A DNA stretch of 64,000 bases, from the sequence record NC_054931.1, one strand, 5' to 3'. Position numbers and translations under genes: made by a program. The notes beneath the pieces are model-generated. The model had not been told where the DNA came from. It was given only the letters and a program-made list of their open reading frames with translations, and did not search any database. Shown here piece by piece: positions 1 through 50,244 of this stretch. How positions within the stretch are numbered: the first letter of the stretch is position 1; each line of letters begins with the position of its first letter. The DNA comes from Escherichia phage T2.

Positions 1-11
1 AATTTTCCTTA

Positions 12-2189
12 TTAGGCCGCAAGGGCCTTCATAGTTTTAGCGATTTGAGAAACTTCATCATCACTTAAAGAGTTGCGATATCCGATGAAGTCGGAAACAA
101 TACGGAATTTCTTGGTAAACTCAGCAACCATTTTATCACTGTTTTTTGAAGCATTATTTGATAATACATCAAAAAGATTAGTTACTGTCCAGATGTCATG
201 ACCAATGGTATCTTTTCCACCATTAAAATATACACCCTGTAATGAACTAACCATATTAGCGAGTCGTGTATATTCTTCAGAAACTTCATCTACACTGAAG
301 TACTTCATCATAAAATCTAGCTCAGGATACTTGATAATTTTATCAATATATCGTTTAGCTGAACTTGAATAACCTACATACTTATCATAATCTACATCAT
401 CAAAAGCATCTACATATAAATCGCGTAGAGTTTCAAAAATACATTGGCACTGACCGAGTTCTTTTACCTTTTTCTGTAAAAGCGGACGAATAACATAAAA
501 TTCATTAATGCCAATAAGATTAGCCATACGAATCAAAATATTCATAGATGGATTACAAAGAGATGTAGTACCATCCATAGAGAAAATATCAGAACGATGC
601 ATATACGCTACATAACCAGTAATTTCATCTGCTTCTGACGTAAGTGTAAATAGTTCCTCTTTTTCCCAGCGCCCGTCTTTAATTTCAAACTTAAATGCTG
701 TAGCAGCTTTAGGACGAGGAGCTTTACTTTTAACTACCTTTGGAATATAGCTTTTAACTAAAGCTTCGATTTCTGACAAATAATGAATGTTAACTTCATC
801 ACTTTCAAACATTGCCATAATATCAGGAAGCAAATCAATCTGCGATTCTACTTCTGGGTTAATAAACAGAAGACGCTCATTGTGATGAATATTCAAAGTG
901 TTATTAAATTCACTATCATCTAACGCACGTGCTAATCCACGGACAATATTAACACGATTTTTAATATTATCAATAACAATATTAATTTTTGTTGTATTAA
1001 TACCAAACAGACGATAACTTGATGCAACGGCTGAAGTTTCATGACTTTGCTTAATGCGCTTCAGTCGAGGGTCAAGATTTACTTCATACACAACTCCTGC
1101 ATTGCATAACTTACTATCAGGTTCAAACATACTCTGCATCTTCTTATATGACAGATTTTTAGTCGTGAATTTGACTGAATTACTAATCATATAATCTCGA
1201 GCAGAATACCCCATCTTCATCAATTCACGATATGTGTGACGAGGAGATGTAGATTCTTTAAATCGTTTTACATCTTCATTAAATGCTTGCTCACTGAGTT
1301 CTTTAACTCGCTCAATAATATTTTTACGAGTACGATCATCAAGTGAAAGAGCCTCGCGAGATGGAGCAATATCAAGTGAACCCATTGGAAACTTAATGTA
1401 ATTCACTTCATTGCGAATGCTTAACCAGTTGCGGTCTCTAATAACACCATCAATAGGATAAACAATACCGCCATAGATAGCATATAATCCACCACGATCA
1501 GGCCAGTATCTTTCTGGATTTACGCCGTAATAATCATCAAAATCCGGAAAATAGTCAATTTCACGGTCAAGACTATTAATGATAGCCAAATCTTTGAACG
1601 GCCGCATGATATAAGAAACTTCATAAGCAAAGTTTCTAAAGTCTTTTTCTTCAACTGGAACTACGATTTCAATGCCAGTTTTATCATCTGGACCCATTTC
1701 TTTTACGAATGTAGGTTTAATCTGTGGGCCATCACCATCCATGTAAGCTACATAACCACGAATTTCACCTTTATGGTATGAAGTAATACTAAACGTATCA
1801 GTATAACTAAACGGAGATTTAGAACCTAAACCAAATCCACCAATGAAATCATTAGATTCAGCTTTAGATGAACTGAAGTATGAATTATACAGCCCAGGAG
1901 AATTATCATCACCCTGAATATCAAAATCACTCATACCCGGACCAAAATCTCGACAAACAAATCGCGGATCTAATCGTCCTGGAACTTGAATGATAAATTT
2001 TTCAGGATTTCCATTGAGAGCATGGGCATCAATCATGTTAGTAATCAATTCACGGACTACTGCGCGAATTTTGTTTGTATACAAATCAGATGACAGAATT
2101 TTAAATACTTTAGGAGATGCTGTGATGCTAAATGCTTTTGATTTAGAACCATTACCAAGAATTGTTTCTTTTTCAGTGGTGATAATCAT
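12..2189 (-). CDS. rIIA: rIIA protein (GHKL/HATPase-like N-terminal domain)
   Basis: 725-aa ORF; N-terminal ATPase-like motif [15 protein letters not shown]; length and position match T-even rIIA. Confidence 0.9.
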
Positions 2190-2199
2190 AATTTCCTCA

Positions 2200-2403
2200 T
2201 TAATTCATATTACGCTTAATAACTTCAGCAACTTCTAGTAATTCATCTTTAGTTGCGGTGTCGGATTGAATTTTATCTCTAATATCCTTAAAGCGGTTTT
2301 TAAATTCTTCGGCTTCTCCCATATCGAAAAAGCGTTGAATGATTCTATATTCTCGATGAACTGCTTTATCAAAAAGTTCTAAATTTACTCTATATGATTT
2401 CAT
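2200..2403 (-). CDS. hypothetical small protein between rIIA and topoisomerase gene
   Basis: 67-aa ORF, tightly packed upstream of rIIA, preceded by early promoter. Confidence 0.5.
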
Positions 2404-2428
2404 TTCAATATCCTCATTTGCCCAATTA

Positions 2429-2458
2429 ATTATACCACATCCTTGTGGTAAAGTAAAC
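2429..2458 (-). promoter_or_regulatory. T4-type early promoter (-35 GTTTAC, -10 TATAAT) for rIIA.1/rIIA
   Basis: plus strand shows attata (2429-2434), 18-bp spacer, gtaaac (2453-2458). Confidence 0.6.
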
Positions 2459-4278
2459 TACTGGCTCATCCATTCTTTACGAAGGTCAGCATTATCTCCC
2501 ATGAGCATTTCAAAAAGCTCTTTCCAGTTCTCAGGAAGTTTAACAACATCATATACTGGATTTTGAATCATTTCACGATATTCAGATTTTTCCAAAGAGC
2601 CAAGTCCTTTAATATAACGGATGCTATGTTTAGGTAGAGCATCTTTGGCACTCTCATATTCAGCGACTGTATAAAACCATTCTTGTTTTTTACCGACCTG
2701 AGCGATGATTACAGGAGTTTTGACAAAGCGAATTCGTCCTTGCTCAAACAATTCTGGCCAATTACTAAAAAATCCGAGCAGAGAAGGATAAATGCTTCCT
2801 AGACCATCATGGTCAGCATCAGTCATAATAGCAATATTATGATAATTCAAGTTTTCAGCTTTTTCACCAAGAACTAGACCAGTGATTGCGCAAATATCAA
2901 ATAGTTCTTTGTTTTTAAGCATATCGGCATATGACATACCCCAGCTATTAAGAACTTTACCACGCAATGGATAACCACCATGAAGTTCTTTATCACGAAC
3001 ATCAATAAGATATCCGATAGCAGAATCACCCTCAGTCAAGAAAAGAGTAGTATCAGCATCTTTACCACAAAGATTCGCTTTGATATGTTTATGAACCTTA
3101 GCTTTAGAAGCTTTTTTAGCTGCCTTTGTCTCTGCTGCTTTTTCCGCCGCCAATTTACGAGCTAATGCTGCTTCAATAATTGGCATTAAAATTGCTTCAT
3201 TATTTAGAATAGCGCGTGAAATCTTTTTAGCATCAAGTTGAATATGACTACGAATTTCACCAAAAGGAGAAGTAAGTCGTTCTTTAGTTTGAGAGTCAAA
3301 TCGCATGTTTTTCATATCGCGAACAAACATAACGATAGTCAAACATTCTTTAACACGTGCTTTAGTTACATCAATTTTGAATTTACGTTTGATTTGTGGA
3401 ATAAGGTCTTCACAAATATCATCCATAACACAGTCAATATGATGGCCACCATTCTTAGTATGAATGTTATTGACGTACGTCAACTGACGAAAACCATCCG
3501 GTGAACGACCAACCGCAATAGAACAATTTTCTTGTTCTTGAACAATAGCATGTTCATCATACTGTCGTGCATATTTCTTAAAATTGCCCTGAACCTTTTT
3601 ACCATTAAAGGTAAATTGAATATCAGGATAAACTACAGCAAGCGTCTGGAGACGATCAAGTGTAATGTCAAGATAAACTTGGGACAGCTCATTAGTTTCA
3701 AATGACATAAAATCAGGAATGAAAGTAACACGAGTTCCTTTCCATTTTCCAGGAATATCTTCCCATGATTTATTTTCCATGCCATTTGAACAACGAACTA
3801 CAATATTATTTTGACCATCGCCAGTTTCACCGACAAACATCACAGAAAAAATGTTTGTCAAACTAGAACCAACACCATTCATACCACCGGTGACGCGTTC
3901 TTTATCATCACCAAAGTTACCACCTGCTTTTGGAATAGTCCATGCAGCAACTGGACCAGGAATTTCTTCACCAGTAGGTGTTTTAACCATCGCTTGTGGA
4001 ATACCACGACCGTTATCTTCAACTGTTACTTGATTGTTTTTAATAGTAACATTAATTTTATTTGCTAATTTAAACTTAGTACGAATACCTTCATCTACTG
4101 AGTTATCGATAATTTCATCAATAAGCTTAACAAGACCAGGTACATACTGAACACTTTCCCATTTACCAAACAGAAAGCGCTCATGCATTTCATTAGCAGA
4201 AGAGCCAATATACATGCCACTACGCTTTTTGATGTGTTCAATATCGCTCAGAATTTTAATTTCATTCTTAATCATCAC
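2458..4278 (-). CDS. 39: DNA topoisomerase II large subunit (GyrB-like ATPase), gene 39 with gene-60-equivalent C-terminus in one continuous ORF
   Basis: 606-aa ORF; N-terminus KKRSGMYIGSS typical of GyrB family; no interruption. Confidence 0.9.
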   Translation of the reverse strand: MMIKNEIKILSDIEHIKKRSGMYIGSSANEMHERFLFGKWESVQYVPGLVKLIDEIIDNSVDEGIRTKFKLANKINVTIKNNQVTVEDNGRGIPQAMVKTPTGEEIPGPVAAWTIPKAGGNFGDDKERVTGGMNGVGSSLTNIFSVMFVGETGDGQNNIVVRCSNGMENKSWEDIPGKWKGTRVTFIPDFMSFETNELSQVYLDITLDRLQTLAVVYPDIQFTFNGKKVQGNFKKYARQYDEHAIVQEQENCSIAVGRSPDGFRQLTYVNNIHTKNGGHHIDCVMDDICEDLIPQIKRKFKIDVTKARVKECLTIVMFVRDMKNMRFDSQTKERLTSPFGEIRSHIQLDAKKISRAILNNEAILMPIIEAALARKLAAEKAAETKAAKKASKAKVHKHIKANLCGKDADTTLFLTEGDSAIGYLIDVRDKELHGGYPLRGKVLNSWGMSYADMLKNKELFDICAITGLVLGEKAENLNYHNIAIMTDADHDGLGSIYPSLLGFFSNWPELFEQGRIRFVKTPVIIAQVGKKQEWFYTVAEYESAKDALPKHSIRYIKGLGSLEKSEYREMIQNPVYDVVKLPENWKELFEMLMGDNADLRKEWMSQ

Positions 4279-4982: not shown

Positions 4983-5159
4983 TTACCCTTTAAGTAAGTC
5001 GTAAAAACCACCATTCACATGCTTAGGAGCAGAAGGCCGACGAGTAGACAAACGATGACATTTAGGGCAAACATCATTTTCTCGTTCAGAAATCTTTTTA
5101 ATTTTTTCATATTCATGCCCGCAATCTTCGGATTGGCATTTATAATCATACATTGGCAT
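4983..5159 (-). CDS. small zinc-ribbon protein (58 aa, CxxC...CxxC), below ORF-track cutoff
   Basis: manual translation MPMYDYKCQSEDCGHEYEKIKKISERENDVCPKCHRL...; SD aagga before ATG at 5159. Confidence 0.45.
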   Translation of the reverse strand: MPMYDYKCQSEDCGHEYEKIKKISERENDVCPKCHRLSTRRPSAPKHVNGGFYDLLKG

Positions 5160-5161
5160 AA

Positions 5162-5587
5162 TTATTCCTTAAAGTGTGCTTTCAGCATTTGATACAAGGA
5201 CCATGCCTGTTCATTATTTTCAATAGTAACTTTCATTACTGGGAATTCTGTGAAATCTTCTATTTGTTCTTGCTCTTTCTCTTCCTGCTCTTGCTCTTCA
5301 ACTGCCTGATATGGATTTTCCACTTCATCAAAGAACCCAGCTTCGTTAGTAGAAAGCCAGATAAAGTTTTCGTCAAGGATATCACCGTGTGTTGCATATC
5401 CAACTGTGCCAGTAGATGTCACAATTTTAGTAGGACGCCAAAGATAATCAACATCTAAAATTTTAAAAGGATGCATACCTAAACGGCGTGCATAGATTCC
5501 GTTATCAGTATGGTCTTTAATAAAATTTTCTTGAGCTTGTTTATTTTTAAATTGATACCATTTATTAACTTCAAATTTAATAGCCAT
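5162..5587 (-). CDS. hypothetical acidic protein (141 aa; matches goF position and length in T4 order)
   Basis: ORF; Glu-rich segment [12 protein letters not shown]; assignment by position only. Confidence 0.35.
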
Positions 5588-5802
5588 TAATAAATTTCCT
5601 TCCAGTAAGTTGTGCCATCTTCAGTAATTTCACGAAATACACCGTAAATTGGTTGTTTATCACCGACTTTCTCATACACATAAACCGAAGTCAAGTGAGT
5701 AAACTTGATGGTGTGTTCCTTTTGAACTACTACCAAATCTGGATCGAATAATACATCTTCAAATTCATCATTAGTGCAGTTCTGAACAATTTTACGTTTC
5801 AT
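5587..5802 (-). CDS. hypothetical protein (71 aa; cef-like position)
   Basis: ORF with ATGA overlap to downstream gene. Confidence 0.35.
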
Positions 5803-5815
5803 TATAATTTCCTCA

Positions 5816-6085
5816 TTAATTGAACAGTGGAGCGATACGTTTCAGAAGAGTAGCAGCACCTTTAGCGAATTTTACATCATGAAAAACAGTTTCTTCTTCT
5901 GTAACAATTCGAACTTTAATATTTTCACAATCCCAATTTTTGCGAACAATCTTCAAAAGCTGCAGTAAATCTTTACATTCAGCAATATCGATAACACATC
6001 CACGAGAATCTTCCATTATCGCACGATAACCATAAGCCATACCATAATCGTTGAAAGATTGCTCGATGATAATTAAGTTTTCCAT
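5816..6085 (-). CDS. hypothetical protein
   Basis: ORF; likely ATG at 6085 with SD ggag inside a conserved leader shared with the gene at 51677. Confidence 0.4.
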   Translation of the reverse strand: MENLIIIEQSFNDYGMAYGYRAIMEDSRGCVIDIAECKDLLQLLKIVRKNWDCENIKVRIVTEEETVFHDVKFAKGAATLLKRIAPLFN

Positions 6086-6183
6086 TTTATTCTCCAAGTT
6101 GTTTTCTGTATCAGTAGTTGATATTGATATAGTACCATAATCAACTACTGATGTATATAGTTTTATGAAAAAATTTTTAAACT

Positions 6184-6675
6184 TTATGCATAGCGAGCTT
6201 TGCTATAGTGTTTAATCCAGCTTTCAGGAATGACTTTGTATGTTCCTAAAAATACCGCGTTATATAACTTAACGCCATCTTCTACCCATTGATCAGTAAT
6301 GTATGCACACATAGCGCGAGTACGGTTAACAACCCCTTCCTCACCTTCAGTAAATTCAAACTCATAAGGAGCAACGAACTTAATGGCCTGACCGAGTTTC
6401 CACTTAAAGTCTACACCTACATGCGAAGTATCAATCGTTTCAATTCCTTTAGCGGGAACAGCTTTCAAAAACGCAGGCTCAAGAAATTTCCATCGAACAT
6501 AACCAAACTGAGGTTTAGACATTCCATCTTTAGGAATGATACGCACTTTTACTTCAGAATCTTCATCTTTAACACCATGTTTAAGCTGAATGCTTACAAC
6601 TTCAACCAATTTTCCTGCTGCTTTAGAACGGGATTTATCAGATACACGAGCAATTTCACCGATATTAATATTCAT
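6184..6675 (-). CDS. motB: MotB-like protein (by length and position)
   Basis: 163-aa ORF immediately before dexA in transcription order. Confidence 0.4.
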   Translation of the reverse strand: MNINIGEIARVSDKSRSKAAGKLVEVVSIQLKHGVKDEDSEVKVRIIPKDGMSKPQFGYVRWKFLEPAFLKAVPAKGIETIDTSHVGVDFKWKLGQAIKFVAPYEFEFTEGEEGVVNRTRAMCAYITDQWVEDGVKLYNAVFLGTYKVIPESWIKHYSKARYA

Positions 6676-18035: not shown

Positions 18036-18392
18036 TTAACCTCTATTCATAAAAGCATTAAAAATTTGGTCATCAATAGATGGTGCAGTAATATTTTCTG
18101 TATCATTTAGCAAATCATTAATTTCATCAGATAGCATAACACATGTACCTTTATTTCCTGTAATTGTTACTGCACAATTACGAACGTTTTCTTTATTAAA
18201 TTTTAGGTTAATATTTTCGTAATGAAAATCCTTTAATGCTGAATATATTTTTAAAATAAAATTATCTTTTACTACAATAAACCCAACCTCACTATTAAAA
18301 CGTGGTTCATGGAAACTGTAATAAACCTTTTCATCTATAAAATCGTATGAAATTTTTTCCATTTTTAAATATGAAAATTCAGAACTATGCAT
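18036..18392 (-). CDS. hypothetical protein
   Basis: 118-aa ORF. Confidence 0.4.
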   Translation of the reverse strand: MHSSEFSYLKMEKISYDFIDEKVYYSFHEPRFNSEVGFIVVKDNFILKIYSALKDFHYENINLKFNKENVRNCAVTITGNKGTCVMLSDEINDLLNDTENITAPSIDDQIFNAFMNRG

Positions 18393-18420
18393 ACTAACCT
18401 CTAATTATTCACCTACCACT

Positions 18421-18699
18421 TCAGCGATGATTATTTTTATTATTAAAGTTTTTATCGCAATACAGAACATAATTATACTGCATTACACCACCAGACTTAA
18501 GCTGTTTTTGCACTTCAGCTTTCATTTCAGGACGATCACGCTCAACGATATTCATAATATCTGCTTCAATTTGGGTTTCAACTTCAGTCTGATCCGCAGT
18601 CATAGACCATTCACACAAATCTTTATCATAGCCTGCCATAGCAGGCTGAGCAGCACAAGAAGCTAAAGCAAAAATTGTAGCAAAGATAAATTTTTTCAT
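18421..18699 (-). CDS. sp: secreted protein, Spackle (Sp)-like by position
   Basis: start at MKKFIFATIFALA with SD gaggag; cleavable signal peptide; position between 61 and dmd. Confidence 0.45.
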   Translation of the reverse strand: MKKFIFATIFALASCAAQPAMAGYDKDLCEWSMTADQTEVETQIEADIMNIVERDRPEMKAEVQKQLKSGGVMQYNYVLYCDKNFNNKNNHR

Positions 18700-18728
18700 G
18701 ATTAATCTCCTCAGTAGTTTATGTTTAT

Positions 18729-18758
18729 ATAGTATCTCAATTTCCAATAAAAGTAAAC
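18729..18758 (-). promoter_or_regulatory. T4-type early promoter
   Basis: gtaaac 18753-18758 with -10 TACTAT-like 18 bp away. Confidence 0.4.
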
Positions 18759-18760
18759 AG

Positions 18761-19018
18761 TTATTTTAAAACTTTTGCGTAATCACATGTTACAAACTGT
18801 TTCTCTAGCTTAACGATCTTACGAAAGTATCTTTTGCATTGGCGAATCTGCCGCTTCGTAGGGCGAACAGCAAACTTAATAAATTCCACTCGACCAAATG
18901 GAGGACTTTCTTCTGCTGGAATATCTAACACCAATTCCCACGTATCTGCAATAAGTGCTTTGAATTGCGTATTTTTCCTGACGTTATACGGAGTAGGTTT
19001 AAATAAAACAATATGCAT
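18761..19018 (-). CDS. hypothetical protein
   Basis: ORF; likely start MHIVLFKP at 19018 with SD gaggat. Confidence 0.4.
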   Translation of the reverse strand: MHIVLFKPTPYNVRKNTQFKALIADTWELVLDIPAEESPPFGRVEFIKFAVRPTKRQIRQCKRYFRKIVKLEKQFVTCDYAKVLK

Positions 19019-19019
19019 A

Positions 19020-19202
19020 TTATCCTCGGCAATCCACTTCACACACTTTCTTATCATCAATGAAAGCTTTAACTAATGCTTTATTAACTTCAGCATATTG
19101 AGTAGTAGCCCATTGAACGTCATCTTTCATCATTGTGGTTTCTTTAGTAAACATGCTTTCATTCTTAAACCACCCCATAAAAACTACCTTTACCAATTCC
19201 AT
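19020..19202 (-). CDS. dmd: Dmd, antitoxin against host RnlA/LsoA RNases
   Basis: 60-aa ORF MELVKVVFMGWFKNESMF... matching recalled T4 Dmd length and sequence. Confidence 0.75.
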   Translation of the reverse strand: MELVKVVFMGWFKNESMFTKETTMMKDDVQWATTQYAEVNKALVKAFIDDKKVCEVDCRG

Positions 19203-19231
19203 AACAATCTCCTCATTTAACCAACAAGACT

Positions 19232-19261
19232 ACTATACCATAATCTTGTCAGCTTGTAAAC
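19232..19261 (-). promoter_or_regulatory. T4-type early promoter upstream of dmd
   Basis: gtaaac 19256-19261, 18-bp spacer, -10 TATAGT. Confidence 0.45.
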
Positions 19262-20688
19262 TAAAATTTTAATTCATTCGCCAAAGCATCTAACTGAGCT
19301 CGAGTGGATTCATTTCTTTGATAGCGATTCTGCTCAGCCTGAATCTGTTGTGAACCTGCTACTTCGTTCACTTCAGTTGGAGTAGAATCTTGTTCAATTT
19401 CTACCCATTTCTGATTTCCTTTTTGAACACCCATCAAAAACTTATTCCATTTGTTTTTATCACCATATCGTGATTTGATTTGCTTAATGAGTTGTTGTTC
19501 AGCAGCTGCTAGCTCCTCGGTTTCAATGACTGCAAGCATAAAATCGGCTGTTGCTGGAAGACCGGCAGATTCTGCAATATCGCTCATGTTAACATCGGAA
19601 GAGTCCCAAGCTTGTTTACCAACCTGTGCTGCAGTCCAAAGAACAGTTTCGGTTTCAACAGCCAGAGCACGCAATTCCTCTGCAATAGCTTTAACAGTTG
19701 TGTAACTATTTTCTGAATAAACTCTAATGCGGCAAGATTTACAAATACCTAGATAGTCGACAATAATGATTGTTGGAACAAAATTCTTTTTGAGCTTCAA
19801 TTCATTTAAAAGCGATCGAAATGTATTAGCATCTGCTCCACCGGTAGGATACTGTTTAACGATTAAACGACCGAGAGTAGATTTCTCACGCCATTTTTCC
19901 ATTTTTCCTTTATACTCAGCGTAAGAAATATGCCCATCATCAATGTCATCAAGAGAAACATCAAGCATATTAGCATCAATACGTTTAGCACAGACTTCTT
20001 CTGCCATTTCCATTGAAATGTAAAGAACATTATGTCCGAGCTGTAAATAATCTGCTGCCAATGAACACAATCCTAATGACTTACCGACGTTAACGCCAGC
20101 CATTAAAACGTTCAGTGTTCCAGTCTCAGCTCCGCCTTTAGTAATTTTGTTTAGAATTCTGAGTTTAAATGGAACCTTACGAGCTTTATTCATATAAGAT
20201 AGCCAACGTGCTTCGTAGTCATCCATCCAATCATGACCAACGTAGCTATCAAATGAAATTGATAATGCTTGGCGCATGATGTCAGGAATAGCACCAACAT
20301 CCGGCATTTTCTTATTTCGTTTTTCCGGAGGAAGCTCAGCATTAGTTTGAATTTCGATTATTTTAGACGTAGCATTAAACATCGCCCTTTGCTGAACATA
20401 TTTTTCTGTTTCTTTTACTAACCAGCTGTGGTCTTCCGGAGAATCAGCTAGTTTTGAAATAAGTGTTTTTACACCAGAATATTCTGTTTCAGTAAATGAA
20501 CTATTTTCTAATGCAACATTTAACGCATTAATAGATGGAACGCTATGGTACTCATTAACATGAGATTTAATTAATTTGAATGTATTTTTAGCTGGACCAC
20601 TTTCAAAATATTCTGAATCCATATATGGCCAAACTTTTGAAAAATAAGCTTGATCAAATATGAGATGAGAAAGAATAATTTCTACCAC
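19261..20688 (-). CDS. 41: replicative DNA helicase gp41 (DnaB-like)
   Basis: 475-aa ORF; Walker A GVNVGKS; length equals T4 gp41. Confidence 0.9.
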   Translation of the reverse strand: MVEIILSHLIFDQAYFSKVWPYMDSEYFESGPAKNTFKLIKSHVNEYHSVPSINALNVALENSSFTETEYSGVKTLISKLADSPEDHSWLVKETEKYVQQRAMFNATSKIIEIQTNAELPPEKRNKKMPDVGAIPDIMRQALSISFDSYVGHDWMDDYEARWLSYMNKARKVPFKLRILNKITKGGAETGTLNVLMAGVNVGKSLGLCSLAADYLQLGHNVLYISMEMAEEVCAKRIDANMLDVSLDDIDDGHISYAEYKGKMEKWREKSTLGRLIVKQYPTGGADANTFRSLLNELKLKKNFVPTIIIVDYLGICKSCRIRVYSENSYTTVKAIAEELRALAVETETVLWTAAQVGKQAWDSSDVNMSDIAESAGLPATADFMLAVIETEELAAAEQQLIKQIKSRYGDKNKWNKFLMGVQKGNQKWVEIEQDSTPTEVNEVAGSQQIQAEQNRYQRNESTRAQLDALANELKF

Positions 20689-20697
20689 ACTTACTCC

Positions 20698-21060
20698 TTA
20701 AAAGAATTTAAATTTTTTCTTTGACCTTTTATTAAATGCATCTTGTAATTGCATTGTAATACATTTTTCTACATGAGGAGCTAACTCAGCTTTTCTTTCT
20801 TGGTCAAGAACAGCAAAGTCCATTACAACCTTTCCATCAACCCAATCCAGTTTTGTTACATACACTATATGTGTAGAACCATCTTCTAGTTTAATGACAA
20901 TCTCCTGGATAACATTTTCCATAGCGGATTTAATTATCTTAAGAGACTCATTAAAAAGACGTTCTTTTCTTTCTTCTTCCCCCTCCGAAGAGGGGGATTC
21001 ATCGATAATTTCTAGATCTAAATCTAAATCATCTTTATTCATTAAATTCTTCCATATCAC
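20698..21060 (-). CDS. 40: gp40-like head-assembly protein (by position)
   Basis: 120-aa ORF between 41 and uvsX. Confidence 0.5.
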   Translation of the reverse strand: MIWKNLMNKDDLDLDLEIIDESPSSEGEEERKERLFNESLKIIKSAMENVIQEIVIKLEDGSTHIVYVTKLDWVDGKVVMDFAVLDQERKAELAPHVEKCITMQLQDAFNKRSKKKFKFF

Positions 21061-22216
21061 TTAACTGTTCGAGGTCAGTTTCTAAATCAGCTGCTGATTT
21101 ACTTTTACTTTCTGGAGATTTAAATTTTTCAACCTTTGAGTTAATCAATTCATCAACTTCAGCTTCAACAATTTCATTACTATCAATAGCACCTAACTGA
21201 TAAGCACGTTTAATAGCATCTCGGAATGGTTGATGCTTAAATAAAGGACCCCAGAATGTAGTGCAGTTAGTATCTTTTGCACGCCAAGATTTTTCTTCGC
21301 GAATCATCTCGCCGGTTTCTTCGTCAAGAAATTCACGAGCATACCAACCATTCTTAGGTTTTACCACGAATCCTAATTCTAGAGCCATATCTAACAATCC
21401 AGAATAAGGATCGATACCACCGTCAAATTTAACATCAATAAAAAATTTACTTTTTTCTTTAACGGTACGAGATTTTTCTACATTTAGAACAAATTGATAC
21501 CCCTGAAGATCAGAACCATCTTTAATCTGACGTTTACCGATAATGAATACAGTATCAGCCGAATACATTACGCCTGTACCACCTGTCATCACGGTTTTAC
21601 TAAACATTTCAATTGTTTCAATTGTATGGTTAACCGCAACACACGGAATATTTTTAATGCTAAAATAAGGAGTAACAATACGGAATAATGACTTCAGTGA
21701 TTTAGCACGAGTCATATCTGCCACAGATTTTTCATTCAAGGCATCTTCCGTTTCTTTCTTAGAAGCCATATTACCGATTGAGTCGATGAATACAATAACC
21801 TTTTCACCACGCTCAATAGCTTCAAGCTGGTTCACCATATCAATTTTCAGCTGTTCAACTGACTGAATTGGCGTATGAATTACTCGTTCCGGGTCAACTC
21901 CCATGGATCGCAAATAAGCTGGAGTAATACCAAATTCGCTATCATAGAATAGACAAACCGCGTCAGGATATTTGTTCAAATATGCCGCAACCATAGTCAA
22001 AGACATATTTGATTTAAAGTGTTTAGAAGGCCCTGCGAAAATAGTTAAACCAGACTGCATACCACCATCAATCGCACCAGAAATAGCAATATTAAGCATT
22101 GGGATTTTTGTACGGATTACATCCTTTTCATTAAAGAATTTAGATGTAGTCAGCTCAGCAGTCATTTTAGAAGTGGAAGCTTTAATCAAACGGGATTTTA
22201 AATCTGCAATAGACAT
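21035..22216 (-). CDS. uvsX: UvsX recombinase (RecA-like)
   Basis: 393-aa ORF; Walker A GPSKHFKS; extensive match to recalled UvsX sequence. Confidence 0.9.
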   Translation of the reverse strand: MSIADLKSRLIKASTSKMTAELTTSKFFNEKDVIRTKIPMLNIAISGAIDGGMQSGLTIFAGPSKHFKSNMSLTMVAAYLNKYPDAVCLFYDSEFGITPAYLRSMGVDPERVIHTPIQSVEQLKIDMVNQLEAIERGEKVIVFIDSIGNMASKKETEDALNEKSVADMTRAKSLKSLFRIVTPYFSIKNIPCVAVNHTIETIEMFSKTVMTGGTGVMYSADTVFIIGKRQIKDGSDLQGYQFVLNVEKSRTVKEKSKFFIDVKFDGGIDPYSGLLDMALELGFVVKPKNGWYAREFLDEETGEMIREEKSWRAKDTNCTTFWGPLFKHQPFRDAIKRAYQLGAIDSNEIVEAEVDELINSKVEKFKSPESKSKSAADLETDLEQLSDMEEFNE

Positions 22217-22293
22217 TCATTTTTTCCATAGGCATCATTATATTTTCCTCACTGGTTAAAGATAGAGTAATTATAACACAATAAATTTAGGCA

Positions 22294-23142
22294 TTAATCA
22301 ACTGCTATTGGATGAATAGCATTAAACTTATGAAATGCTTCTGATTTTTCTTTACGCGAAACACACATGCGAAGAACCTTTAATGACTCGTCTTCTTCAC
22401 CCAACGATTTTCGTTTTTCAATATTAGAAGTTTTCCAACGAGCTTGCTCTGGAAACTCTCTATTGATTTGCTCAAGCGCTCTATTATGTTTAGAATTACT
22501 GCGAATTGAACTGCACCCGCCAGGAGCTTGTGCTTTTCCAGATACAACTAGATATTTGAACAAGGCCAAATGCGGATAACCTTGATTAATTAAATTGAGA
22601 AATGCATACATATCTTCGCATAAATCAATTTTTCCATACCCAATTTGTTCTGTAGTAAGTTTTCCGAGGTCATACCATGTATTCGTGAATCCATATGAAT
22701 TTTCACGATAATTACCCCAAGATGAAGTAATTTTAAAAATAGGTAGACGAGCATGGCCATGATAATACCCACAATCCATGGCATCCTCAACATATTGAAT
22801 CAATTCATAGAACTGTTCACGAGTCAATTGATTGACTTTATCTACGCAACGACGATCATCTCTTTTTCGCATTGAACTCATACGAATAGTAGTATCATCG
22901 TCAATCATCCAGATTCGTTGACCTGCATACATATCAGTAATTGCTTTACGAGTACCGGCAATTCCGTTTACATCATCAGGAATAGTTATAATTTTAGCTC
23001 TAGACCCATAGGCGTCATAATAAGCTTTTTCTTCATGTTCACGTACTACGATATGAGGTTCATAATCAGTCGGAAACATATCAAGGGCAGAAACTGCCCC
23101 TACATGTTGATAGCTCGGAATTACGAATTGAATCATTTCCAC
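22294..23142 (-). CDS. GT-A-fold glycosyltransferase at the beta-glucosyltransferase locus
   Basis: 282-aa ORF; VIPSY N-terminus and DxD motif RIWMIDDDTTI; not the 351-aa T4 beta-gt. Confidence 0.5.
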   Translation of the reverse strand: MEMIQFVIPSYQHVGAVSALDMFPTDYEPHIVVREHEEKAYYDAYGSRAKIITIPDDVNGIAGTRKAITDMYAGQRIWMIDDDTTIRMSSMRKRDDRRCVDKVNQLTREQFYELIQYVEDAMDCGYYHGHARLPIFKITSSWGNYRENSYGFTNTWYDLGKLTTEQIGYGKIDLCEDMYAFLNLINQGYPHLALFKYLVVSGKAQAPGGCSSIRSNSKHNRALEQINREFPEQARWKTSNIEKRKSLGEEDESLKVLRMCVSRKEKSEAFHKFNAIHPIAVD

Positions 23143-23873
23143 TCACCGTTATAATCTTTTTTCACAATATGAGTTTCGCCAGTATTCCACCAATGATCAA
23201 CCAAGTAAAAATGACGAGAATATACATGAAGACTTCCAACATTCCATATAATAGAACCTGCTTTATACTGACGAGTTGAATCGCCTGCATTCAAATCAGA
23301 TACTAATTTATCTAGTACGTATTTTTGCCATGCATAATCATTACGGAATCCGAAGACCACGTCATTTGAGCGCATGCTTACTACTGCATTGACTTTCTTA
23401 TCACGAATCAGGTATTGTACTGTATTCGTGCACATGAAATCTGACATGCCGTCTTTGTTGTAGTCAAACTGCATAGATGGACGAGTATAAATCATGATAC
23501 CACGTCGAGAATCAGGATTTTGACCAAGTTCAGCTAAACACATGTCATATTGAGCATAGTTATCTTCTGACCAGATAGCCCAACCATAATTCGAGTTAAT
23601 TTCACCTTTAGAAGATGCTACTTGTTGCCAAATCTTCGGTGTTTCACCCGGAATATCTTTAACGAACAAGCTCTTAGATTTATACCATTCAAGTTCACGC
23701 TGAATGTATTCATCATTAAGAGCGCCAAAAATAAACGGTTCATCTGCTACAAATGATGCGCCAATAATTTCAATAGTTTTAACACCAGTTTTATCAACTA
23801 CGAAATCTTTTTCTTTTAATGCAAGCCCCAAATGAAGACGGATTTCTTCAACTGTCATAGAGTCACTAATCAT
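23133..23873 (-). CDS. 42: dCMP hydroxymethylase gp42
   Basis: 246-aa ORF; thymidylate-synthase-like fold signatures; length equals T4 gp42. Confidence 0.9.
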   Translation of the reverse strand: MISDSMTVEEIRLHLGLALKEKDFVVDKTGVKTIEIIGASFVADEPFIFGALNDEYIQRELEWYKSKSLFVKDIPGETPKIWQQVASSKGEINSNYGWAIWSEDNYAQYDMCLAELGQNPDSRRGIMIYTRPSMQFDYNKDGMSDFMCTNTVQYLIRDKKVNAVVSMRSNDVVFGFRNDYAWQKYVLDKLVSDLNAGDSTRQYKAGSIIWNVGSLHVYSRHFYLVDHWWNTGETHIVKKDYNGEWK

Positions 23874-23880
23874 TTAAACC

Positions 23881-24030
23881 TCAATTGATGCATTCATATT
23901 TAAATTGTAACAGTAATAAACCCCACCCTATGATAAGAGTTGGAATCATAGCAGGAACTGTTACGCTATAGTATATACTTATTATAACCATCAAGATTAA
24001 AAGCAACACTGCTATAATTTTGCTTTTCAT
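23881..24030 (-). CDS. small hydrophobic peptide translationally coupled to imm (49 aa, below cutoff)
   Basis: manual translation MKSKIIAVLLLILMVIISIYY...; ATGA overlap with imm stop. Confidence 0.3.
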   Translation of the reverse strand: MKSKIIAVLLLILMVIISIYYSVTVPAMIPTLIIGWGLLLLQFKYECIN

Positions 24031-24278
24031 TCTTTCTCTCTGATGATAATTACCTGATTTGGCTGCGCAGACTTTTTAGTTTCACCAGCAATTGACCAAA
24101 TAAATGTAATAAACCAACCAATAATTGACCAGTTAAACAGTAAAGATGTGAAAAAGATTCCTACTGTCGATTTTGACCCACGCATCAAGGCGATAAACCA
24201 TGGAAGCATGTATATAATAATAGCCAACACACCTGAAACTAAAACCATAAAAATTGAACCTGCTACTAAAGTTTCCAT
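24027..24278 (-). CDS. imm: Imm superinfection immunity membrane protein
   Basis: 83-aa ORF with two hydrophobic helices; length and position match T4 Imm. Confidence 0.8.
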   Translation of the reverse strand: METLVAGSIFMVLVSGVLAIIIYMLPWFIALMRGSKSTVGIFFTSLLFNWSIIGWFITFIWSIAGETKKSAQPNQVIIIREKE

Positions 24279-24285
24279 GTTTTCC

Positions 24286-24666
24286 TCACTTAGTCAAATT
24301 TTTTACACATGAATTATAAGAATTCACTACATACTCCATCGGAGCATTTTTACCGGTACGCCACTGGTAATTATTAGCCCAATTTGCCCAAAGCACGGCG
24401 CAGTAGTTTTCAATTTTTTCTTCGCGCGTAATTACATCCGAATTACGATATGCTTGAGCAGATTCATCTGGACGAATAGCCTCGTCAAAATTCGCCTGCA
24501 TTTGTTCTACTGTCTGTTTTGGAGCTTCTTTATAACACTTGACATTAGGATTATAAAATTTGCTTGAACAGTTTACAATTTTTCCTACATCAGACTGATT
24601 TACTACCTGTCCTTGAGCTACACAACCAGTAAGACCTAATGCAATAACCAAAATAGCGATTTTCAT
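24286..24666 (-). CDS. secreted protein (signal peptide)
   Basis: 126-aa ORF MKIAILVIALGLTGCVAQG, lipobox-like. Confidence 0.4.
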   Translation of the reverse strand: MKIAILVIALGLTGCVAQGQVVNQSDVGKIVNCSSKFYNPNVKCYKEAPKQTVEQMQANFDEAIRPDESAQAYRNSDVITREEKIENYCAVLWANWANNYQWRTGKNAPMEYVVNSYNSCVKNLTK

Positions 24667-24678
24667 AATAATTTCCTC

Positions 24679-24930
24679 TTAAAACTTAACAAATAACTTT
24701 AAAGCATCTTCAGTTTTAATTCCTTTTCTTACACCCATAACAGAAATTGGCTGTGACTGAAATTTTCCTTTACCATTATAAATTTCTAATCCAGTCACCA
24801 TTCCATTTTGTTCTATAATACCGTAAGTGTTACCTTCATTTTCAAATTCTTTAACTTTAAAAAGTTTATTCGCTTTTTCTGCGTTAACAACTTTTAAATT
24901 TTGAATAAAATTAGTTTGAATATTTTTCAT
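24679..24930 (-). CDS. hypothetical protein
   Basis: 83-aa ORF with strong SD ggaggaa. Confidence 0.4.
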   Translation of the reverse strand: MKNIQTNFIQNLKVVNAEKANKLFKVKEFENEGNTYGIIEQNGMVTGLEIYNGKGKFQSQPISVMGVRKGIKTEDALKLFVKF

Positions 24931-24958
24931 TTTGTGTTCCTCCGTAGTTGATAGTTGT

Positions 24959-24988
24959 ATAGTACCACAGAGGAACAGTCTTGTAAAC
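24959..24988 (-). promoter_or_regulatory. T4-type early promoter inside a repeated promoter/leader cassette
   Basis: gtaaac 24983-24988; about 45 bp shared with copy at 50262-50305. Confidence 0.55.
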
Positions 24989-25076
24989 AGTTTTGTGAAA
25001 AAATTTTTAATGAATTCAAAGGGTCCAGAATCATCTGTTTTTCATAAGTATAGATTTATATTACTTGTATGAAAAG

Positions 25077-25092
25077 GGGACCCGGAGGTCCC
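25077..25092 (-). terminator. GC hairpin after gene 43
   Basis: gggacc-cgga-ggtccc perfect inverted repeat flanked by A/T runs. Confidence 0.45.
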
Positions 25093-25105
25093 TAGATTTA
25101 TTCTA

Positions 25106-27802
25106 TCAGCCAAACAGGAAGTCTAACGAAGCTTTTTCCTCATAGTCCATACCTGCCGATTCACACATACCCGCAAGCGGTTTAACAAACGATTTTTGGA
25201 ACAAAGTTGAGTAGTCAATCCAAGATAGTACATCAGAACGAATTTCTTTTGGAAGTTCTGTACCCGATGGCCAAGCAATGCACTTATCACCAAACGGATT
25301 TCCTTCACGTAATGGAAGAACCATTACTTTATTTCCATCCAAAATTGGAGCTACACCCAGACCACTAACAGCTCGACGATAAGTTAGCACACCACGAATA
25401 TGGAACGGACATTTAAATCCTGGCCAACCTTTATCATCATATTTCGCTATATCGTTCGCAGTTTTTACTTCAGCAATAACTTTATAGTCAAGTTGACGAT
25501 ATTCTTTCTCGAAGTTCTTGTAATATTCTTGGACAGACTCTTCGCCTTCCTGAAGAATACGACGAATACTTTCTTCGAGTGCTTCTTGCACTGCTTTTGG
25601 TGTTGAACTCTGCTGAGTTTCCATACCCATGATTTTTAGATGCGGTTCAGCAAATCGCTTATCTTCCATATCATAAACGTTCAGAGCATAACGTTTTTTC
25701 GCTTTCCAAAATCCACCAACACCCTTTGAACCAAGCGGAGGGCAAGAAATAGCTTCACGGTCCATATGCATCAGATGCTCGCGGTTATTCATATAATCAC
25801 ATAACTCACGATATGCAACATCAATCATAGGTTCCATCTTTTTCTTACCAAACTGATTCATGAATTCAACCAAATCGTTCTGCTCTTTGAATCGGTCAAG
25901 ACCAACTTTTTCAATAACTTTATCTACACAAACATATACCGAATCAGTATCACCTGCTGCGATGAAATCTTCATCATTAGTTCCGCATACTTTATTCAGA
26001 TATTCATTAATTTTACGAGCAATCCACTGAATACCAACTTGACCAAAAATTGTGATAGCAGTAGCATTTCGTAAATCATAGTAACGGAAATGAATATTAC
26101 CAAGAGCACCATAAAGACTGTTAATAAGAATTTTACGGTTCAGCTGATTTGTATTAGCAAGTGTAGCTGCTTTTTCACATTCTTCAATCAGACTATTAAG
26201 AACAGATTCAGTATAATTCGATAGTTCATTTAAGAAATCATCAGTGAACTTAACATATCGTTCAACTTCTGGTTTAGTTGAACAAGACCCTGCGCCTTTC
26301 ATAATAATCTTTTTAATAGCTTCGGCATTCATTTCTTCAGCGAACATTTTCTTTTTCCAATCTTTACGCTGGAAAAATACTTTAGCGATTTCCTTTGGAA
26401 TGATACCTTCTTGATGCTTATCATACATCCATCCATTCGGAGAACAAGAATATTCATCACTTGGTTTAGGAGCTGTTCCTGCGATATATTCATGAATTGG
26501 ATGAACTTTAAACTGACCACGAATAGTTTCAGGACTAATGTTAACCTGGCGAATAATGCTCGGATACAGAGACGTCAAGTCAAAACTCATAATGTATCGA
26601 CGAGCAATTGGTTTAGGTTCAAATACAAATGCACCCGGAAAACTCTGTTTAACGTGCGAACCTTGTTGAGGAATAACCTTGTGTTCACCTTTCAATGAGT
26701 TAAAAATAATAGCATCCCAAGTTTTAATAGGACTCATTACACCAGAAAAAGGCATTTTAGCATAATAAGACATACTTAAAACTAGATCGATAAACCCACG
26801 AATTTTATCAATTGCTTGAACTGATTCTACGTCAATGATGTTATAACTAATGTATCGTTGATGATTAGTCTCACGAAGTTTATTAATAGGACCGTCGTAT
26901 GGTAATTTACCTTTTTTGGTTTCATGTTGAGCAACTGATTCCAAAGAGAATGACGGCAAATTAGTAAAAGCGAATTTCTTGTACAAATCTAAATAATCAA
27001 GAATAGATACGCCATCAATAGAATAAATTTCTTTGCTACCGTACATATTTTGAATTAGTTTAGATTTTACCCGACCGATTGGAGAGAAACGTTTCATACT
27101 GCGTTCACCCAGAATCATTTTAACGCGATTCATGATATACGGAACGTCAAACCCCTCAATATTCCAACCAGTAAAAATAGCAGGTCGTTTCTGTTCCCAG
27201 AGATTAATATATTCCATGAGCATATCACGCTCATTATCAAATGGCATATAAATTACTCGGTCAAGAATTTCTTGAGGAACTTCATCACCACCTTCACAGT
27301 CAAGCTTAGCAGCTAACTTTGCATCCCATTTTGATACTGAACCGTACATTGAATTCAAAAGGTCGAAAACATAAAAACGGTCGTCAATTGAATCATAATG
27401 AGTGATAGCATCAATTTCATATTCTGCTTTCATTGGGTCAGGAAATTTATCACCAGTAACCTCAATGTCACAGTTAGCTACACGAACAAATTTTCGGTCA
27501 TAAACAATTTCTGAACCATACGTATCACTGATATAAGCGAGTTTAAAATCGTTCATACCGAGAGCTTCGAGACCGATGTCTTCCATTCGCTTCATCCAAT
27601 CTCGAGCATCTTTCATTGATGGAAATTTTTGAGGAGCACAGTTTTTACCATAGATGTCTTTGTATTTTGACTCTTCCTTACAATGCCTAAACATAGTCGG
27701 AAGATATTCTACTTCACGAGTACGTTCCTTTCCGTTTTCATCAATATAACGTTCAATAATATTATTTCCGACTGTTTCGATAGAGATATAAAATTCTTTC
27801 AT
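25106..27802 (-). CDS. 43: DNA polymerase gp43 (family B, with 3'-5' exonuclease)
   Basis: 898-aa ORF; polymerase motifs including YGDTDS-type region (AGDTDSVY); length equals T4 gp43. Confidence 0.95.
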   Translation of the reverse strand: MKEFYISIETVGNNIIERYIDENGKERTREVEYLPTMFRHCKEESKYKDIYGKNCAPQKFPSMKDARDWMKRMEDIGLEALGMNDFKLAYISDTYGSEIVYDRKFVRVANCDIEVTGDKFPDPMKAEYEIDAITHYDSIDDRFYVFDLLNSMYGSVSKWDAKLAAKLDCEGGDEVPQEILDRVIYMPFDNERDMLMEYINLWEQKRPAIFTGWNIEGFDVPYIMNRVKMILGERSMKRFSPIGRVKSKLIQNMYGSKEIYSIDGVSILDYLDLYKKFAFTNLPSFSLESVAQHETKKGKLPYDGPINKLRETNHQRYISYNIIDVESVQAIDKIRGFIDLVLSMSYYAKMPFSGVMSPIKTWDAIIFNSLKGEHKVIPQQGSHVKQSFPGAFVFEPKPIARRYIMSFDLTSLYPSIIRQVNISPETIRGQFKVHPIHEYIAGTAPKPSDEYSCSPNGWMYDKHQEGIIPKEIAKVFFQRKDWKKKMFAEEMNAEAIKKIIMKGAGSCSTKPEVERYVKFTDDFLNELSNYTESVLNSLIEECEKAATLANTNQLNRKILINSLYGALGNIHFRYYDLRNATAITIFGQVGIQWIARKINEYLNKVCGTNDEDFIAAGDTDSVYVCVDKVIEKVGLDRFKEQNDLVEFMNQFGKKKMEPMIDVAYRELCDYMNNREHLMHMDREAISCPPLGSKGVGGFWKAKKRYALNVYDMEDKRFAEPHLKIMGMETQQSSTPKAVQEALEESIRRILQEGEESVQEYYKNFEKEYRQLDYKVIAEVKTANDIAKYDDKGWPGFKCPFHIRGVLTYRRAVSGLGVAPILDGNKVMVLPLREGNPFGDKCIAWPSGTELPKEIRSDVLSWIDYSTLFQKSFVKPLAGMCESAGMDYEEKASLDFLFG

Positions 27803-32894: not shown

Positions 32895-32909
32895 TTTGTA
32901 TCCAATTGT

Positions 32910-33762
32910 TCACAATGAAGAAAATTCTTTAACTAAAGCCTGTAATGAAGCCTCTATTGGATATCCATTCTTAACTAACATTTTCCTAAACATCACATGT
33001 TTAGGACGATTATATGATATCCACAATTCATACAATTTATCTTTATTATCCCAATGATAGCCTTTTCGTCTAGATGCTATATGAGCTTTTCTAATCTCCG
33101 GATTTTTCCAACTAGCAGCTACTGAATTTGATATAGCTATTTTATATTCAGGTTGATAAAGCAGCACGAACAGCCTTTTGGTGTTTAATTTTATTTTCTT
33201 CGTTATTAAACCATTCCATTGAAGCCATTGAAATTTTTTGTTTTGTTTTAAAATTATTTAATCTTTCTTTGTTATCTTTCCTATTTTTTGCTACTGAAAA
33301 ATATTTTAATGCCCTTTCTCTAGCAGCATTTCTATTTTGTGGATTTGAATAATACTGTTGAAGCCTTTTTGATATTATGTCACTTACATCCTGTCTTATA
33401 AAACTATATTCAGCAGCTATTAAATCAACTTCGGCTAAAGATAAATTTTTATATGTTTTTCCTGACATCATTCTATTTAAAGCATTTAGCATTTTTCCAT
33501 TTTTACCTTTTGCTAATAAGAAATGTGCTTTGAAATGATTAAAATGACTTAAATTAACTAAATTCCATGTAGATTTTAAATATTCAGGAAATATTGATTT
33601 AGGAAGCACGTGGTGTGCTTCCGTTTTACCTGGAGTTTTAACAGTTGAATTCATAGAAATAAAATTAATGTAAGACTTGGCGTCTTCTTCACTCAACGCT
33701 AATTTTTCAACTAATTCCTTTATTAAAAATTCATCATTAATATCAAGTTTAAAATTCTTCAC
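32910..33762 (-). pseudogene. free-standing HNH homing endonuclease gene split by +1 frameshift
   Basis: 204-aa ORF with HH...N...H motif (EAHHVLPKS...WNLVNLSHFNHFKAH) plus overlapping 85-aa ORF carrying a repeat of the C-terminal motif; span is 3n+1. Confidence 0.5.
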
Positions 33763-35385: not shown

Positions 35386-35403
35386 AAAGGGCCGAAGCCC
35401 TTT
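35386..35403 (-). terminator. C(UUCG)G hairpin after alpha-gt
   Basis: aaagggc-cgaa-gcccttt inverted repeat. Confidence 0.45.
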
Positions 35404-36604
35404 ATTTTGTAATAATGTCAAACTGTTCTTTAAAGCAGAAGCTTGAATCTTGATGCTGATACAAAAATTCATATGCTTTTTCACGTTCGCGGTCATAAAG
35501 AGTTCGGTCAGATGACAGTTCTTTAATACGCTCGAATGTTGATTCCATGTCATTTTCATCAAACCAAATGATACCGCTATCATGCGAGGTCAAAGGAGTA
35601 TTATCAACACGGAATTTTAAATTATCACCCGTTGATTTCCAGAAAACAGGAATTGTTCCACATGCACCAAGCTCGAGATGAGTATATTCTAAAGAACGTT
35701 GTAGATATTTTTTGTCCAACTTACTCAACTGATAACCAAATCCGGATTTACTCATGCGTTCAAGCATTTCGCTATTTACATAACGGTCAAGAATTTGCGT
35801 TGGTAAATTAGGAGCAATTTTAATTTGGTCTACTTGATGAAGACGATAATACTCGTATGGAATTCCTTTTTCTTTAATAGGAATGAACGCTGGAGAACGT
35901 TCCAGACCTTCCATAATAGTACTTAGTCCTGCAGGTTTAAGATGTTTTTCGTGAAAATCAAACATCTGATAAAAACCTTTCCATGTAGTCGTACGACCAA
36001 TCCAACGGTTGATATTCATGTTAATTTCAGAAACATCTTTCCAGTAGGTTGACCGAACCTTCGCAATATCCATAGGAGGCTGAAAGTTATATACTGTCGG
36101 CGCTTCTTCAATATCATCAAACAGAGAAACAGTTTCTGGATACCATTCTTTCATCAGAACTTTATTAAAATCACCATTATCAGAATGGCTAAAAATAACA
36201 TCAGCTCGACGAACAGTTTCTTCTAATCCCAAATTTCGACGCAAAGAAAGAGAAGAATGGTCATGTTGATAAACTACAACACGAACCGAAGGTTTAATGT
36301 TATCAATAATTTTTTTATAGTTATTAATAGTGTCTTCTTCAACTGAAGTAGCAGGAACTGAATTGATAATTAGAATATCACAATCATTTACCAGCTTAAG
36401 TGTTTTATCGTATTCTTTTGCCAATAAAACCGGAATTGAAAATGATTTATAATCATGCGCACAGTTACGAGTAAATGATTTATCTTTAGCATAAACCAAA
36501 GTTACTTCATGACCATTTTTAATAAACCAATCACGTTGCTCAAGAGAAAATTTAGTTACACCGCAACCTTCAAGACCTCGAGCCATAAAAATACATACTT
36601 TCAT
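35402..36604 (-). CDS. agt: DNA alpha-glucosyltransferase
   Basis: 400-aa ORF; length and position equal T4 alpha-gt. Confidence 0.8.
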   Translation of the reverse strand: MKVCIFMARGLEGCGVTKFSLEQRDWFIKNGHEVTLVYAKDKSFTRNCAHDYKSFSIPVLLAKEYDKTLKLVNDCDILIINSVPATSVEEDTINNYKKIIDNIKPSVRVVVYQHDHSSLSLRRNLGLEETVRRADVIFSHSDNGDFNKVLMKEWYPETVSLFDDIEEAPTVYNFQPPMDIAKVRSTYWKDVSEINMNINRWIGRTTTWKGFYQMFDFHEKHLKPAGLSTIMEGLERSPAFIPIKEKGIPYEYYRLHQVDQIKIAPNLPTQILDRYVNSEMLERMSKSGFGYQLSKLDKKYLQRSLEYTHLELGACGTIPVFWKSTGDNLKFRVDNTPLTSHDSGIIWFDENDMESTFERIKELSSDRTLYDREREKAYEFLYQHQDSSFCFKEQFDIITK

Positions 36605-49716: not shown

Positions 49717-50244
49717 TTATGCGAGTACCGTCTTTAACCGTTCTTCAAACTTCCGAAGAGTATTTTGGCGTTCAGCTCTTTGCTTTTTGTAAGTTTCAAT
49801 ACGCTCTGAAATGAGAGTGTATCGTTCATTTACTGATTCTTTCATAAAATCAGGAATTTCACGAGAAGCTTTAATCTCGTCAAATTTATCAATAACAGCT
49901 TGCTCTTCAGCAATTAAGTTATCATACATCAAAATATCTTTCTTGATGAACTCAATATCTTCTTGAGTTACACGAGATAACTTAGATGCTTTATCCTTTT
50001 TGTACTGTTCGTTAGTATCACGAGACCAGTGTAATGTACGATTTTTATTCGTATTTTTGTAAATTTCTACAATACCAATCTCATCGATAATAACGATCCA
50101 ATTCCAACGGGATTTGTAAATTTGTCCTCCATCAACTGTGATTTCACCTCCGATTGAGATGTCATTAAAGAACTTGCTTTGTGCTTCAGATTTAAATTTA
50201 CCATCGTTGTAATTTACCAGGTTGAAAATATCTTTAGCGTTCAT
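49717..50244 (-). CDS. hypothetical protein
   Basis: ORF; track start lies inside promoter cassette, so ATG at 50244 (MNAKDIF) preferred. Confidence 0.4.
   Translation of the reverse strand: MNAKDIFNLVNYNDGKFKSEAQSKFFNDISIGGEITVDGGQIYKSRWNWIVIIDEIGIVEIYKNTNKNRTLHWSRDTNEQYKKDKASKLSRVTQEDIEFIKKDILMYDNLIAEEQAVIDKFDEIKASREIPDFMKESVNERYTLISERIETYKKQRAERQNTLRKFEERLKTVLA

Follow-up and report, generated by a model that had tools for sequence, protein, structure and literature searches.

The open reading frame (ORF) that lies between uvsX and gene 42 in phage T2 is almost certainly ggt (also called ba-gt or g-gt), which encodes beta-glucosyl-HMC-alpha-glucosyltransferase, the glucosyl-DNA beta-glucosyltransferase. 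The product is a GT2-like enzyme of the GT-A class that adds a second sugar to glucosylated hydroxymethylcytosine (hmC). The gene, the reaction, the GT-A fold, the synteny with T4 b-gt and the effect on host defence are all already known. The enzyme is EC 2.4.1.28, its biochemistry has been known since about 1960, and the gene is reported to have been originally cloned and sequenced by Winkler and Rueger in 1993 (in Nucleic Acids Res 21:1500). What may be new is that the T2 protein carries two substitutions, R11H and P251S, both of which are private to the T2 lineage among the sequences compared. The pattern of sugars on hmC decides which defences (Brig1, Brig3/BapA, GmrSD/BrxU, McrBC and CRISPR) can act on T-even DNA, and screens for defence systems use T2 as a standard test phage. 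The two substitutions give a long-standing curiosity a lead that can be tested cheaply.

The ggt gene and its product

The window, to which all positions refer unless another record is named, is the whole 64,000-nucleotide stretch of the T2 genome that was analyzed. A six-frame ORF list gave a 282-amino acid ORF that starts at a GTG and occupies 22294–23142 on the minus strand, with uvsX (RecA-like, 21035–22216, minus) and gene 42 (thymidylate-synthase-like, 23133–23873, minus) as its neighbours. When 50,697 phage records were searched by megablast, 849 of 849 nucleotides were identical in six records of the T2 lineage. Five of these are named T2 and the sixth is SV76; four of the six carry the annotation beta-glucosyl-HMC-alpha-glucosyltransferase. 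The protein is 98% identical to its T6 counterpart. The initial annotation had proposed, as an example, a second-sugar transferase of the T2/T6 type and had suggested a comparison with the T2 and T6 sequences, and that comparison bears out the proposal. Because 473 near-identical copies were found in the phage records, and 306 relatives at E ≤ 0.001 among 1.84 billion representative proteins (exhaustive phmmer), the ORF is judged from its recurrence to be a real gene and not a chance ORF. An 8.8-kb stretch of the window (18293–27142) is 99.98% identical to the T2 record MH751506.1, where the gene order is 41-40-uvsX-ggt-42-imm.

The position between uvsX and gene 42 given in the initial annotation is correct; the length of 282 residues probably is not. 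The start of ggt is probably the ATG at 23136, giving a coding sequence at 22294–23136 (minus) of 280 codons plus stop, identified from the T2 records, PHROG 842 and PF20691. This start is preferred because of its overlap with gene 42, the GenBank annotation and the N termini of homologues. The ATG (23136–23134) overlaps the TGA stop of gene 42 (23135–23133) within an ATGA at 23133–23136 (minus), as read from the sequence. In MH751506.1, ggt is annotated at 22285–23127, equivalent to 22294–23136 of the window, with a product of 280 amino acids and a 4-nt overlap with gene 42. Full-length homologues all begin M-IQFVIPSY. The GTG at 23142, which would yield the 282-residue product, was rejected; it lies two codons 5′ of the ATG and falls within a likely Shine-Dalgarno stretch, GGTGAGTGG. 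ggt and gene 42 share their direction of transcription, and the ATGA overlap suggests that the two are translationally coupled. Scans for a dedicated promoter or terminator around ggt gave none above shuffled sequences (promoters, 11 versus 8.7 ± 2.6; terminators, 2 versus 1.1). Inside the 5′ end of the gene (codons 12–18), directly after the codon for H11, there is a GC-rich hairpin, GGGGCAG-TTT-CTGCCC (23082–23102, minus), which the scan flagged as terminator-like. Its T tail is poor, and T6, EH2 and Solly have the same hairpin sequence.

The protein matches PHROG 842, beta-glucosyl-HMC-alpha-glucosyltransferase, with E = 3.7e-87 and scores 35.7 bits against Pfam PF20691 (TAGT, TET-associated glycosyltransferase), for which the curated gathering cut-off is 27.5 bits. 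Conservation was assessed in an alignment of 140 family sequences that are 19–98% identical to the T2 protein; PF20691 was matched by all 140 of these full-length relatives. Positions I6, R11, R63, D79, D80, D81, D175, G186, G206, G207 and R212 are each more than 90% conserved. R63, D79–D81, D175, G186, G206–G207 and R212 are all present in T2, and R11 is replaced by His. The missing R11 leaves the membership of T2 ggt in the TAGT family unaffected but raises a question about activity. Across the same alignment, D79/D80/D81, E174/D175, G206/G207 and R212 are 83–100% conserved.

The sequences VIPSY and MIDDDTTI, on which the initial annotation had drawn, are both found in the ggt translation. 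VIPSY corresponds to residues 5–9 in the 280-residue numbering (23110–23124, minus) and is located at the end of strand β1 and the start of the β1-α1 loop (the strand covers residues 3–7 in the model); I6 is conserved in 94% and P7 in 89% of the 140 family sequences. GT-A enzymes have their N-terminal nucleotide-binding motif at this position. MIDDDTTI spans residues 77–84, and the DDD within it, residues 79–81 (22894–22902, minus; D79 99%, D80 100% and D81 94% conserved), is predicted to be the DxD motif that binds metal and nucleotide sugar. In the AlphaFold2 (AF2) model, DDD comes directly after the strand formed by residues 74–78; the classical DxD site, located after a central β-strand, binds a divalent metal and the pyrophosphate of the sugar nucleotide. 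A candidate for the catalytic base is found in the "ED" motif E174-D175 (22612–22617, minus; 83% and 100% conserved in the 140 sequences), which sits at the N terminus of the helix formed by residues 174–185 in the model. A comparably placed "ED" provides the catalytic base of inverting GT2 enzymes, and E174-D175 may have the same catalytic role here.

The AF2 model, calculated from a 10-sequence alignment, is of medium confidence (mean pLDDT 70.6, pTM 0.73), with the N-terminal 125 residues mostly above a pLDDT of 80 and residues 127–150 and 195–210 below 50. It consists of a single Rossmann-like α/β/α domain that resembles solved GT-A enzymes. Foldseek comparison with the Protein Data Bank (PDB) agrees with a GT-A fold, but the match is weak (E about 1e-3). 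In sequence searches of all PDB chains, neither the single protein nor the 140-sequence family profile produced a significant match to a solved relative. The GT-A class named in the initial annotation agrees both with the TAGT match, at 35.7 bits, and with an AF3 model published for the orthologue in T6; the study in question assigns the T2/T6 ba-GT to PF20691 with a GT-A fold and treats the TAGTs of phages as sister to GT2 (2026 NAR, PMC13216743).

T2 ggt shares the DDD, ED, GG and R212 motifs, and a length of about 270 amino acids, with the TAGT family. The T-even members differ from TAGT proteins generally in that they are paired with gp42 and alpha-gt instead of a TET/JBP dioxygenase and in that their acceptor is a sugar; T2 ggt differs further in lacking the family Arg11. 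The GT2-like inverting GT-A enzymes (TarP, 6H1J; TarS; BcsA; SpsA; WrtF) are more distant, with only 8–18% identity to ggt, and the acceptor of ggt, a sugar on DNA, sets it apart from them.

The ggt genes of the two public T6 genomes each have an apparent lesion, and the lesions differ. In MH550421.1 (locus L003, 2924–2976), codon 10 is TAG, and the annotated product of 261 amino acids starts at Met20 and is without the conserved IPSY strand. In AP018814.1/NC_054907.1 (locus L004, 911–1750), a 3-nt deletion turns DDD into DD and leaves 279 amino acids. As T6 is the classical high-gentiobiosyl phage, these lesions may be stock-specific mutations or sequencing errors.

Second-sugar transfer and the T4 locus

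The initial annotation noted that T4 carries its 351-amino acid b-gt at this locus, and indeed segA and b-gt lie between collinear flanks at the position of ggt. Comparison of the T4 locus with the window by blastn aligned T4 positions 1–3056 with 19149–22204 and T4 positions 4998–6514 with 23151–24666. These flanks are 94–96.5% identical in T2 and T4. They enclose 1941 nt (segA and b-gt) in T4 and, in T2, a 946-nt cassette (22205–23150) that contains ggt and has no T4 counterpart. In these alignments, the exchange of segA and b-gt for ggt has the form of a clean cassette replacement. The synteny of TAGT genes with T4 b-gt has already been published (PMC13390438). Relocation of T4 b-gt to another part of the window was considered and rejected, as tblastn revealed no significant homologue within the 64 kb; T2 has been reported to lack b-gt (bioRxiv 10.64898/2026.02.25.707755). 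T4 b-gt and ggt occupy the same slot next to gene 42, use the same donor (UDP-glucose) and are both inverting, creating a beta linkage. They differ in fold (GT-B, PF09198, for T4 b-gt and GT-A for ggt) and in acceptor, which is hmC itself for T4 b-gt and alpha-glucosyl-hmC for ggt. The two proteins have no sequence similarity, which places ggt outside the T4 beta-glucosyltransferase family. The T4 cassette additionally has segA, whereas the T2 cassette does not.

In the most likely pathway, gp42, the dCMP hydroxymethylase encoded directly upstream of ggt in the same orientation (23133–23873, minus), would supply hmC as hydroxymethyl-dCMP, which would then be polymerised into phage DNA. The window also contains a-gt (35402–36604, minus), the gene for the 400-amino acid DNA alpha-glucosyltransferase, recognized as an ORF and from a-gt at 35393–36595 in MH751506.1. 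Alpha-gt would make the alpha-glucosyl-hmC acceptor by adding an alpha-linked glucose to about 70–75% of the hmC. In the reaction described in the literature, ggt would then use UDP-glucose to add another glucose at the 6-OH of the first, with inversion, to give beta-1,6-linked gentiobiosyl-hmC. Because the product contains a beta-1,6-linked glucose derived from UDP-alpha-glucose, the reaction is an inverting one, and it fits a GT2-like mechanism. We infer that DDD (residues 79–81) would hold the divalent metal and the pyrophosphate of the UDP-sugar and that D175, within the ED motif, probably acts as the catalytic base.

The second sugar changes which modification-dependent defences can act on the phage DNA. 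The initial annotation had anticipated an altered sensitivity of this kind, and published work already documents it. In vitro, gentiobiosyl-hmC resists the alpha-glucosyl-hmC glycosylase Brig1 (PMC11078745), and the deglucosylase BapA cannot strip gentiobiose but releases glucose from the DNA of T6 with ba-gt deleted (bioRxiv 10.64898/2026.02.25.707755). The same deletion removes gentiobiosyl protection from T6 and makes the phage more sensitive to Brig1 (PMC11078745). Second-sugar activity is ascribed to the T2 protein from the literature, on the strength of these T6 deletion phenotypes and the presence of gentiobiosyl-hmC in ggt-bearing phages. T2 DNA is reported to contain about 70% alpha-glucosyl-hmC, 5% gentiobiosyl-hmC and 25% bare hmC; the values for T6 DNA are 3%, 72% and 25%, respectively (PMC11078745; bioRxiv 10.64898/2026.02.25.707755). 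By HPLC/MS, the DNA of EH2 and Solly has about one-third hmC and two-thirds gentiobiosyl-hmC, with alpha-glucosyl-hmC at background (PMC13390438).

Two other readings of ggt have to be set against a second-sugar transferase. The enzyme could act on hmC itself as a first-sugar transferase and functional stand-in for T4 beta-gt, whose slot it fills; several database records do call it "beta-glucosyltransferase" or "glucosyl transferase". Moreover, in many phages a TAGT homologue occurs alone, with neither alpha-gt nor beta-gt (PMC13216743), which makes it probable that the base itself is the acceptor for some members of the family. For T2 ggt, we regard this as very improbable. Neither T2 nor T6 DNA contains beta-glucosyl-hmC, and about 25% of their hmC is left unglucosylated (PMC11078745; bioRxiv 10.64898/2026.02.25.707755); wild relatives that carry ggt are likewise without beta-glucosyl-hmC (PMC13390438). 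T6 without ba-gt behaves as a phage whose glucosylated hmC is alpha-glucosyl only, being more sensitive to Brig1 in vivo and in vitro and yielding free glucose with BapA, and the absence of sequence similarity to T4 b-gt also counts against a shared role. The remaining reading, that ggt is not a glycosyltransferase and that the VIPSY and DxD matches are fortuitous, has a negligible probability and is effectively already refuted. Motifs as short as DxD often arise fortuitously, and the sequence searches of the PDB gave no match; but the Pfam TAGT score exceeds its curated threshold, DDD and ED are conserved (83–100%) across 140 diverse homologues, and there is genetic evidence from T6 (PMC11078745; bioRxiv 10.64898/2026.02.25.707755). 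No full-length alignment of the ORF to a non-glycosyltransferase family was found.

Substitutions at residues 11 and 251

Codon 11 of T2 ggt (23104–23106, minus) is CAT, encoding His, where all other aligned family members have Arg. The count is 137 of 139 family representatives, and as the other two have gaps, 137 of 137 where the position is aligned. Codon 251 (22384–22386, minus) is TCA, encoding Ser, where close relatives have Pro. The T2 protein differs from those of EH2, Solly and one IMG/VR contig (locus L005) at exactly these two residues. R11 is also present in the remaining six relatives compared, and P251 in all five full-length ones among them; R11 is found in EH2, Solly, teqskov and five IMG/VR relatives. 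T6 and all other relatives have Arg11 and Pro251 where T2 has His11 and Ser251. Because the related-locus scan of IMG/VR yielded five loci only, allele frequencies were estimated from tblastn counts of peptides in the phage collection. The exact H11 peptide (the first 36 residues) was found in six records only, all T2 or SV76, and the R11 version was found in 336; the identity bands of this 36-residue search leave no room for H11 plus one further change. The exact S251 peptide was again confined to the six T2/SV76 records among about 470, and 451 records differed by one residue. On either side of ggt, 100 nt are identical in T2, EH2 and Solly, and a local cis-regulatory cause of the low gentiobiosylation of T2 was excluded on this ground.

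Gentiobiosyl-hmC makes up only about 5% in T2, so the ggt enzyme appears to do little in this phage. One possible explanation, to which we give slightly less than an even chance, is that T2 ggt is a hypomorph through R11H, P251S or both, which would account for about 5% gentiobiosyl-hmC in T2 versus 40–72% in T6 and most wild relatives. The changes H11R and S251P are all that separate the T2 protein from those of EH2, Solly and the IMG/VR contig, and yet the DNA of EH2 and Solly is about two-thirds gentiobiosyl with alpha-glucosyl-hmC at background (PMC13390438). The universal occurrence of Arg11 in the aligned family and the restriction of H11 and S251 to six of about 470 records point the same way, as do the shared 100-nt flanks. 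In vitro, Brig1 degrades the DNA of modern T2 but not that of T6 (PMC11078745); T2 DNA therefore behaves as alpha-glucosyl DNA. A 1965 study found that T2 × T6 hybrids have one parental glucosylation pattern or the other, that of T2 or that of T6 (PMC2137963), which implies a discrete heritable determinant. R11H is the prime suspect because residue 11 would lie in the β1-α1 loop beside IPSY, a loop that forms part of the nucleotide pocket wall of GT-A enzymes; this location is deduced from GT-A architecture.

The support for a hypomorphic allele is, however, correlative. These phages also differ at other loci, including alpha-gt, distant promoters and timing, and the comparison covered ggt with its 100-nt flanks. 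The Durham phages EL, BGP and Geo have an intermediate 1:2:2 pattern, which indicates that other determinants exist. Should T2 ggt prove to be hypomorphic, the "T2-type" glucosylation would be a mutant state and not a distinct natural pattern, and R11H, with P251S, would explain at the molecular level why T2 is low in gentiobiosyl-hmC, an observation made 65 years ago. A hypomorph would also explain why T2, although its ggt ORF is intact, behaves like a phage with alpha-glucosyl DNA. Arg11 would then be crucial to catalysis or UDP binding in the TAGT family, and H11R would be a one-codon handle for obtaining isogenic T2 with high or low gentiobiosylation.

Other features of the window

The 77-nt intergenic region between ggt and uvsX (22217–22293, minus) has the coding-strand sequence TGCCTAAATTTATTGTGTTATAAT... 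and does not differ in EH2 and Solly. It contains a TATAAT with a TGCCTAA element 11 nt upstream. The latter resembles a T4 MotA box, and together the two are likely a middle promoter for uvsX. On the other side of gene 42, between it and imm, a 49-amino acid ORF (23881–24030, minus; MKSKIIAVLLLILMVIISIYYSVTVPAMIPTLIIGWGLLLLQFKYECIN) has two hydrophobic stretches and a start that overlaps the stop codon of imm. T4 and T6 have it too, intact and conserved, yet none of the T2, T4 and T6 records examined annotates it; its product may be a small membrane protein that has escaped annotation.

Side matches from blastn revealed that a short sequence of about 50–100 nt upstream of gene 43 is repeated in the window with 76–95% identity. 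The copies are at about 24925–24988 and 50240–50303 and at 51671–51760 and 6079–6179, and they may represent a recombination hotspot, or else a promoter or regulatory element that these sites have in common. In the interval from gene 46 to gene 47, at about 32910–33760 (32901–33753 in the T2 record), there are ORFs annotated as a fragment of a mob-like homing endonuclease and as hypothetical proteins (T2_55 and T2_56). A weak tblastn match to T4 SegA lies at 32958–33053 (E = 0.007), and the region is possibly a decayed homing endonuclease cassette.
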